Origin: a virus | Virus record (IMG/VR): IMGVR_UViG_3300045988_096557 | Reading direction: 5' to 3' (one strand) | DNA length: 64,000 nucleotides | Shown here: positions 21,404 through 21,459 of the stretch, piece after piece | Layout: every line of letters starts with the position of its first letter | Position numbering within the stretch: the first letter of the stretch is position 1 | Made by a program: the position numbers and the translations under genes | The notes under the pieces: model-generated | Database searches by the model: none | Seen by the model: only the letters and a program-made list of their open reading frames with translations | Told to the model about the DNA's origin: nothing

Positions 21404-21459
21404 CCTCGTTCTGCTCCGAGTTTCCGTTCGCGCAGGCTCACCAAATTTTTCTTTCAAAA
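21404..21459. repeat. 56-nt GC-rich conserved element, copy 1 (second copy at 46527..46582, 1 mismatch)
   Basis: CCTCGTTCTGCTCCGAGTTTCCGTTCG(C/T)GCAGGCTCACCAAATTTTTCTTTCAAAA; translated frames differ between copies. Confidence 0.6.

Follow-up and report, generated by a model that had tools for sequence, protein, structure and literature searches.

In the T4-type phages, composite terminator/promoter repeats known as promoter-early stem-loop (PeSL) cassettes mediate modular shuffling and the formation of mini-circles (Arbiol et al. 2010, PMC2839356; Comeau et al. 2014, PMC4122927). By analogy, these cassettes are the nearest concept to the subject of the present study: a G+C-rich element of 56 nt that is found twice, 25 kb apart, in a stretch of 64,000 nt of viral DNA (IMG/VR record IMGVR_UViG_3300045988_096557; hereafter, the window). 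We favor, with moderate confidence, the reading that this 56-mer is cis-acting DNA for the control of transcription, forming the upstream half of a promoter region.

The likeness to the PeSLs is partial. In both cases an A/T-rich upstream region is associated with a terminator hairpin and, here at copy 2, with a sigma-70-type promoter, the unit is repeated in the genome of a large lytic phage, and it lies at the boundaries of exchangeable modules. Recombination between PeSL copies gives indels and circles; here the copies exchange sequence, and two contigs with reciprocal junctions are either recombinants or assembly chimeras. There are also differences, which touch the defining features of the PeSLs. 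The PeSLs number about 50 per genome and occur in hyperplastic regions, whereas the element has two copies. The PeSLs share their hexamers and their stem-loop, whereas the element is the segment between terminator and promoter and includes neither; indeed, the hairpins that abut its two copies are unrelated in sequence and lie outside the repeat. Finally, the element has a specific G+C-rich box under strong constraint, and the phage that carries it is SPO1-like, a phage of Firmicutes, and not T4-like.

The Element and Its Conservation

A pattern search of the window with the 56-mer, CCTCGTTCTGCTCCGAGTTTCCGTTCG(C/T)GCAGGCTCACCAAATTTTTCTTTCAAAA, returns exactly two matches, both on the + strand, which differ solely at position 28 (C in copy 1 vs T in copy 2). 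The same pattern has no match in 100 dinucleotide-preserving shuffles of the window, so the duplication with one mismatch, first pointed out in an earlier note made from the letters of this DNA, is real. The G+C content of the element is 58-60%, compared with 36% for the whole window. Its parts are as follows.

21404..21459, + strand: element copy 1; secondary and lineage-specific as judged from relatives, its site being occupied only in the W clade
21404-21413, + strand: copy 1 pre-box
21414-21426, + strand: copy 1 box A, CTCCGAGTTTCCG
21427-21431, + strand: copy 1 variable spacer
21432-21442, + strand: copy 1 box B, GCAGGCTCACC
21443-21451, + strand: copy 1 A/T block, AAATTTTTC
21452-21459, + strand: copy 1 3' end, TTTCAAAA
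46527..46582, + strand: element copy 2; ancestral as judged from relatives, among which it is kept while the downstream protein is 35-100% identical
46537-46549, + strand: copy 2 box A
46550-46554, + strand: copy 2 variable spacer
46555-46565, + strand: copy 2 box B
46566-46574, + strand: copy 2 A/T block
46575-46582, + strand: copy 2 3' end, TTTCAAAA

Is the element coding? Two ORFs, 21296-21514 and 46415-46615, cover it, but at offsets of 108 and 112 nt and hence in different frames; both also run through the terminators. They are therefore spurious and represent no genes. The conservation is at the nucleotide level, as the earlier note had proposed.

Further copies were collected by scanning viral, genome, and metagenome collections with exact and degenerate patterns, and by searches with the flanking proteins. 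More than 80 were recovered from relatives, each at one of the same two operon boundaries; none lies at a random position, which is where the earlier note would have expected the debris of a recent duplication. No third site emerged when a hidden Markov model (HMM) of the W-type copies was run against the window, or when a broader HMM of the box was run against related loci totaling 1.19 Mb. Each genome has just the two sites, contigs of 146-148 kb included, and all metagenome matches fall in those two contexts. The GenBank phages gave no match by blastn of the region or tblastn of the downstream protein. A host-derived sequence or a CRISPR-like repeat was considered and rejected, because the sole match in the scan of the genome collection is a 147.8-kb contig labeled "Eubacterium sp.", in the same phage context. 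A general late-promoter motif (TATAAAG or TATAAATA) fared no better, its occurrences being scattered and in many cases within genes.

An alignment of 15 regions defines the layout at copy 2: a terminator, a loose CTAGCyTCGT, box A (CTCCGAGTTTCCG), five hypervariable bases, and then RYAGGCYCASCAAWTTTTTC, which comprises box B and the A/T block. After a further 17-19 nt there follows TTGATT, TGGATT, or TTGACG, then 17 nt and TGnTATAAT or TATCAT, and about 35 nt beyond this -10 come the ribosome binding site and the ATG. This architecture is fixed in at least 11 lineages, from the terminator through the ATG. The five-base spacer keeps its length and varies by CpG-type transitions only (CGCGT, CACGC, TGCGC, CGCAC, CACAT, TTCGT). 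Across 11 lineages, the majority fractions are 0.93 for box A, 0.94 for the A/T block, and 0.78 for box B, to be compared with 0.91 for the -35, 0.95 for the -10, and 0.64-0.76 for the spacer, the linker, and the untranslated region. Between the two main clades, the gene adjoining copy 2 encodes proteins that are 44% identical, and third codon positions are 44% identical too. Box A and the A/T block thus match the hexamers in conservation, which means that purifying selection acts on the element as strongly as on the core promoter.

With a single exception, all lineages examined have the element in front of a gene for a homologue of the 46660 product (153 aa), even where amino acid identity falls to 35%. 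The upstream gene and the terminator before copy 2 vary by lineage, with homology starting exactly at the element, which argues that the element belongs to the promoter-gene module downstream. One relative without the element, L165, has a terminator followed directly by a perfect TTGACA, 17 nt, and TATAAT, as would be expected if the box assists an imperfect core promoter.

The Control Regions Around the Copies

The features that surround the two copies are listed here.

21365..21403, + strand: intrinsic terminator at the end of the tRNA-array/AAA-ATPase/tRNA-Met unit; hairpin at 21365-21393, 12 pairs, T-rich tail
21558..26025, + strand: tail-fiber operon; five genes with Mtd_N domains and two to five in-frame TAG codons each, from read-through ORFs and domains
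26032-26072: terminator of the tail-fiber operon
46483..46520, + strand: intrinsic terminator after the SPFH/Band-7 gene and before copy 2; hairpin at 46483-46511, 13 pairs, T-rich tail
46593..46621, + strand: sigma-A/sigma-70-type promoter-like site, read from the sequence; TGGATT (-35), 17 nt, TGaTATAAT (extended -10)
46660..48646, + strand: operon 3' of copy 2; 153-aa protein (one TAG), small ORF, PhoH/PIN
47167-47397 and 47390-48646, + strand: the small ORF and the PhoH/PIN gene of that operon
48700..51298, + strand: lysis genes; NAGPA-SPOR protein (2 TAG), endolysin (9 TAG), small membrane protein
51300-51338: terminator after the lysis genes

Each copy had been described as following an intrinsic terminator and preceding the promoter of a late operon. 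The first part of this description stands: the hairpins, of 12 and 13 bp with T-rich tails, are separated from their copies by only a few bases, and the one before copy 1 shows compensatory changes in its stem among relatives. The second part stands for copy 2 alone. There, TGGATT at 46593-46598 and TATAAT at 46616-46621 form a promoter-like site whose -35 hexamer begins 10 nt after the end of the repeat; a scan with the consensus promoter had not listed it, as its -35 matches at just 3/6 positions in the window. Its hexamers and their spacing are kept in all relatives. The predicted start is near 46628, which places copy 2 at about -101 to -46, its box A at about -91 to -79 (near -85), and its A/T block at about -58 to -60. 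The sequences 3' of the two copies differ, and copy 1 is followed by no canonical promoter. The distance to the start codon is 98 nt for copy 1 (ATG at 21558) and 77 nt for copy 2 (ATG at 46660).

As for the operons, that of copy 1 can well be called late, with its five TAG-containing tail-fiber genes. For copy 2 the term applies in part: the adjoining genes encode a protein without assigned function, the small ORF, and PhoH/PIN, and the TAG-rich lysis genes, the endolysin with its lysozyme, amidase, and SLH domains among them, lie beyond a weak hairpin at 48650-48677, through which they may be reached by read-through.

History of the Two Copies

The earlier note drew no distinction between the histories of the two copies. 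The comparison of relatives does: the copy 2 site is the ancestral and widespread one, and copy 1 a secondary, lineage-specific copy. The copy 1 site holds the element only in a narrow sub-clade (the window, 084596, 091188, 093451, 075249, OGGG, OLFV, OGNP, and OFLZ). In a sister clade, whose AAA protein is 56-63% identical, the same position has a different G+C-rich box, TGGACCGCGCTCGGTGCAAACGCAAAGTGGCTYTAG, followed by AATTTTTC; the exact core of this box occurs once per contig. In this same, more distant clade, a different 33-nt block, AATTTTTC..GGCAAA.TGATTT, is common to the regions upstream of the tail fibers and of the 46660-type genes, with a score that none of 500 shuffles reaches, so that the two control regions are related in both clades. 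They are therefore relatives of old standing, and the segments that they have exchanged differ from clade to clade.

Within the sub-clade, the copies have exchanged sequence. The 56-mer exists in two haplotypes, T7/T24/T35 and C7/A24/C35, either of which can be found at each of the two sites, depending on the genome, an indication that the sites are interchangeable. In OLFV the two copies are identical, copy 1 of OFLZ equals copy 2 of OGNP, and in the window they differ by one base. In 084596 and 093451 the copy 2 module has been replaced by a more distant version (the downstream protein is 73% identical), and the two copies differ at about ten positions and by an indel. Substitutions in copy 1 fall mostly at positions that are also variable in copy 2, and its box A and A/T block are intact in all members of the sub-clade. 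The pattern indicates that the copies evolve in concert, by gene conversion within a mosaic population.

A Proposed Role in Transcription

Of the roles suggested by the earlier note, a binding or enhancer-type site for transcription is the most plausible, supported by the nucleotide-level conservation and the position at operon boundaries. How might it work? The distal G+C-rich box (CTCCGAGTTTCCG together with RYAGGCYCAS) would be the docking site of a sequence-specific factor, and the A/T tract CAAWTTTTTC would serve as an UP-like element, or as a bend, at about -60. The docked factor would then act on the promoter downstream. In the sub-clade, gene conversion has copied this module before the tail-fiber operon, where it replaced a different G+C-rich box, so that the tail-fiber operon and the 46660/PhoH/lysis unit are likely to share one input. 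The analysis shows the position of the element, its pattern of conservation, its history, the exchange between its copies, and its lack of conserved RNA structure; that a protein binds it, that the effect is activating, and that the two operons are co-regulated is what we infer.

Among known systems, late activators of Gram-positive phages offer one parallel: p4 of phi29, whose site lies upstream of PA3, Alt, and the RinA/ArpU-type proteins. In these cases, as here, a conserved block is found tens of base pairs 5' of a core promoter, before structural or lysis genes of a Firmicutes phage, and such a block is expected to recruit or stabilize the host RNA polymerase. A p4-type site is centered about 80 bp upstream of a late promoter start; at copy 2, with the start as predicted, box A would span about -91 to -79. 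The parallel is one of function only. Sites for p4 and Alt have inverted or direct repeats, whereas box A has none beyond CTC-C-GAG; the promoter of copy 2, unlike a typical activator-dependent one, has a reasonable -35 and an extended -10; and no Phi-29_GP4, Alt, RinA/ArpU-type, or other activator family was found among the proteins of the window.

A second parallel, again functional, is the UP element, the binding site of the alpha-CTD of RNA polymerase, whose consensus was reportedly established by Estrem et al. in 1998. AAATTTTTCTTTCAAAA matches 13 of the 14 specified positions of NNAAAWWTWTTTTNNNAAANNN, the consensus, its A/T block is invariant in all copies, and at copy 2 it lies just 5' of a -35 hexamer. 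The tract, however, spans about -62 to -46 at copy 2, counted from the predicted start, compared with the canonical -59 to -38; at copy 1 no core promoter could be placed. It covers just the 3' third of the repeat, leaving the G+C-rich box aside.

Several points weigh against the element being a transcriptional control site of this kind. Pfam and PHROG scans of the window proteins detect no sigma factor or known late activator, and the protein encoded just 3' of copy 2 has no recognizable DNA-binding fold in its predicted structure. The promoter of copy 2 already looks strong, with its extended -10, and it is not evident why it would require an activator. No clear dyad symmetry is seen in box A, and the A/T tract lies ~5 bp further 5' than the canonical E. 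coli UP element, taken with the consensus reported by Estrem et al. in 1998. Last, copy 1 has no recognizable sigma-A -10/-35 pair at the geometry of copy 2, and the picture of an element upstream of a sigma-A promoter is therefore clean only for copy 2.

Candidates for the factor itself have been sought and set aside. Autoregulation by the 46660 product was considered; this protein has no Pfam or PHROG match and only a weak dsRBD-like fold, which gives no support for a DNA-binding regulator. Its model (46660-47121; AlphaFold, from a database protein that is 99% identical, pLDDT 94) predicts an N-terminal alpha-beta3-alpha domain and a long antiparallel helical hairpin, and the fold matches of the former are weak and dsRBD-like (E >= 0.09). 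The family to which it belongs comprises about 97 clusters (P0001-P0097), without Pfam or PHROG annotation. Paralogy with the product of 26378-26710 is not supported (BLASTP E = 0.28). Sites for sigma-54, CodY, Spo0A, LexA (Cheo), and cre, judged by eye against the consensus sequences, either misfit or fit in the hypervariable spacer.

Alternative Explanations

The alternative that survives best, unlikely as we hold it to be, is that the element is a complete promoter in its own right, not of the sigma-A type, recognized, in the manner of SPO1-type phages, by a phage-encoded sigma factor or by a modified RNA polymerase. Its -35-like part would be box A (GAGTTTCCG) and its -10-like part AAATTTTT, 17 nt further 3', with transcription starting in or near TTTCAAAA; copying the element would then install a whole promoter before the tail-fiber genes. 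Two conserved blocks around a hypervariable spacer of fixed length are indeed a promoter-like signature. The tail-fiber operon has no usable sigma-A promoter in either clade and yet keeps the AATTTTTC block, and the variable distance from element to start codon (77 vs 98 nt) fits an autonomous unit. The nearest cultured relatives are Herelleviridae, and SPO1, the type member of that family, uses phage sigma factors, with middle promoters of the form AGGAGA N17-18 TTTNTTT and late promoters of the form CGTTAGA N18-19 GATATT. The element thus resembles the promoters of the SPO1 phage sigma factors in host group, in phage type, and in the two blocks with their spacer. It has, on the other hand, no visible match to these consensus sequences, and no sigma-like gene was found in the window. 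A middle or late class should have many members, whereas there are just two sites per ~147-kb genome, and scans of the window for bipartite -35/-10-like patterns derived from the element add nothing beyond chance. The conserved region, about 45 nt plus the pre-box, also exceeds a typical -35/-10 pair.

Could the near-identity of the copies instead be a mere by-product of recombination? In this case, copy 1 would be neutral debris, and the repeat a 56-bp patch of homology for module exchange, deletion, or mini-circles. Haplotypes have been swapped between the sites, upstream modules vary by strain with homology from the element on, many contigs end there, and shuffling and mini-circle formation are documented for PeSLs (PMC2839356, PMC4122927). 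There are also two reciprocal junction contigs, public and from the human gut, both 99% identical to the window on each side: OGPY01001342.1 (L199) joins window positions 58667..46527 to 21459..20056 at the element, as a deletion would, and OGPC01001942.1 (L206) joins 44305..46582 to 21404..30485, as a circle or a duplication would. These are either real recombinants (a 25-kb deletion, and a circle or duplication) or chimeras made by the assembler, which may arise at an exact repeat at least as long as the k-mer. Contig 068993 begins with the second base of the element, as expected of a break at k=55, and several further contigs stop there or close by; in practice, the element, an exact repeat as long as a k-mer, causes short-read assemblies of such phages to break or become scrambled. 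At the end of contig 042147 (L173 1-80), a perfect long palindrome is centered on the loop of the terminator upstream of the element, and this is probably a fold-back artifact of assembly. The recombination site proposed in the earlier note thus gains from the exchange of haplotypes and from the reciprocal contigs, and loses in that chimeras could account for the latter. As the whole explanation, recombination is improbable. It does not explain why copy 2 is as conserved as the promoter hexamers across deep divergence, nor why box A and the A/T block of copy 1 are intact throughout the sub-clade; and a phage with the 25-kb deletion, having lost tail fibers, tRNAs, and suppressor tRNA, should not be viable alone.

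It is very unlikely that the element encodes, or is part of, a functional RNA, be it a small RNA (sRNA), a leader, or an antitermination or processing signal. Its location between a terminator and a gene start is one where leaders and sRNAs are often found. Nevertheless, the element alone folds no better than shuffled sequences (z = -0.5 on the + strand and -0.4 on the - strand), and the signal of the 110-nt regions that include the terminators (z about -3.7) is due to the terminator hairpins. For 13 diverse sequences, RNAalifold predicts no pairing at all on the + strand and just three pairs, all weak, on the other, with no covariation, and substitutions among relatives break the minimum-free-energy pairs of the element. 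Rfam gives no match over the element, at the gathering cutoff or with E up to 10. Since a terminator abuts the element and the sequence upstream varies, there is also no promoter 5' of it. The sRNA offered in the earlier note is accordingly not borne out.

Least credible of all, and hardly worth retaining, is the view that the copies are att-like repeats around an integrated 25-kb mobile element, or the boundaries of a packaging or terminal repeat: they are direct repeats with sharp edges 25 kb apart, and copy 1 lies 124 nt after a tRNA-Met gene, but there is no overlap between repeat and tRNA, the interval 21460-46526 yielded neither an integrase nor a recombinase, the segment encodes tail fibers, tRNAs, NAD-salvage and RNA-repair enzymes, and other phage genes, a content unlike that of the terminal repeats of Herelleviridae, the packaging site of the earlier note finds no evidence, and a more distant clade with copy 2 alone in the same gene order largely refutes the idea.

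The Phage and Its Recoded Genes

The phage from which the window derives is SPO1/Herelleviridae-like, has a genome of roughly 147 kb, comes from the human gut, and reads TAG as sense in some of its genes. The AAA ATPase adjoining copy 1 shares 43% identity with proteins from Bacillus Herelleviridae, the nearest cultured relatives of the phage, and related contigs of 141-148 kb come from human gut samples, one of them binned as Eubacterium sp.; together with the recoding of TAG, this points to an uncultivated SPO1-like myovirus of Firmicutes. The window has 31 tRNA genes, a tmRNA, and a tRNA with the anticodon CTA at 27477-27552. When TAG is read as sense, long ORFs reappear in some of the genes: the tail fibers, the NAGPA-SPOR protein, the endolysin, and the coiled-coil membrane protein at 58201. 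The last (58201-59034; 8 in-frame TAG, an N-terminal membrane helix and a coiled coil) starts 10 nt after a strong terminator (58163-58201 region), which leaves no room for a promoter.

The source phage fits the recoding class of Borges et al. (bioRxiv 10.1101/2021.08.26.457843), in whose stop-codon-recoding gut phages structural and lysis genes are found in several recoded modules. Such phages are thought to delay these proteins by translation, TAG being unreadable before the suppressor tRNA is made; the text of that paper does not contain the word "promoter" (bioRxiv 10.1101/2021.08.26.457843).

The suppressor tRNA of the window (anticodon CTA, called tRNA-Pyl by ARAGORN) lies in the 25-kb segment between the repeats, just past the tail-fiber terminator, ~440 nt 3' of a promoter at 27011-27039. 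This promoter (TTGACA, 17 nt, TGnTATAAT; 12/12 matches) is the only perfect consensus in the region. Between the copies there are also the tail fibers, a second tRNA cluster, a vault-protein-like gene, RNA-repair and NAD-salvage enzymes, and an SPFH protein. The vault-like protein, of 813 aa (30789-33230), combines the repeat, shoulder, and SPFH-like domains of Major Vault Protein; another protein of the SPFH/Band-7 type is encoded at 45582-46478, directly 5' of copy 2, and vault and SPFH proteins are unusual cargo for a phage. The auxiliary block at 36538-45430 amounts to a toolkit for NAD salvage and tRNA repair, with an RNA ligase, a nicotinamidase-like isochorismatase, a PRPP-type phosphoribosyltransferase, NAPRTase, NAD synthase, a Thg1-like tRNA-His guanylyltransferase, a P-loop kinase, and metallophosphatases.

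Upstream of copy 1, an 11-kb array of 27 tRNA genes (10178-21280) encloses the tmRNA (16751-17066; tag DNDYFENYLAA) and a small ORF with a Pfam match to ArfA, a factor of ribosome rescue (E = 3e-4, short of the family cutoff). At 19620-19736, Rfam places a tRNA of 117 nt for which ARAGORN makes no call; it may contain an intron or be otherwise unusual. Some relatives (L092, about 2430-3200; L199, 12274-13009) have an insertion of ~0.7 kb in or next to the tRNA-Met before copy 1, which in L092 holds a GIY-YIG-like ORF; the window is without this insertion.

Outlook

What does the element mean for these phages? Its kind is familiar, but the sequence family is new, functionally constrained, and endowed with a duplication history that can be traced; in principle it is unsurprising. 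It would be ordinary if it were merely an UP-like region with hitchhiking sequence. As a conserved cis-regulatory sequence before two units that hold the TAG-rich tail-fiber and lysis genes of recoding phages, it offers a defined 56-bp probe for the search for a regulator and for studying whether there is coupling between transcription and recoding. In addition, it illustrates cleanly how, in nature, gene conversion can rewire the regulation of a phage genome.

A bolder idea, which we put forward tentatively and as doubtful, is that the G+C-rich box is the site of a dedicated phage factor that times the transcription of the TAG-recoded tail-fiber and lysis modules. It is less likely that the repeats also drive the excision, as a mini-circle, of the 25-kb segment with the suppressor tRNA. 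If there is such a factor, whether an activator, a sigma-like protein, or one that modifies the polymerase, it would be the transcriptional arm of the code switch, and this lineage would have rewired its tail-fiber operon into the circuit by copying the site.

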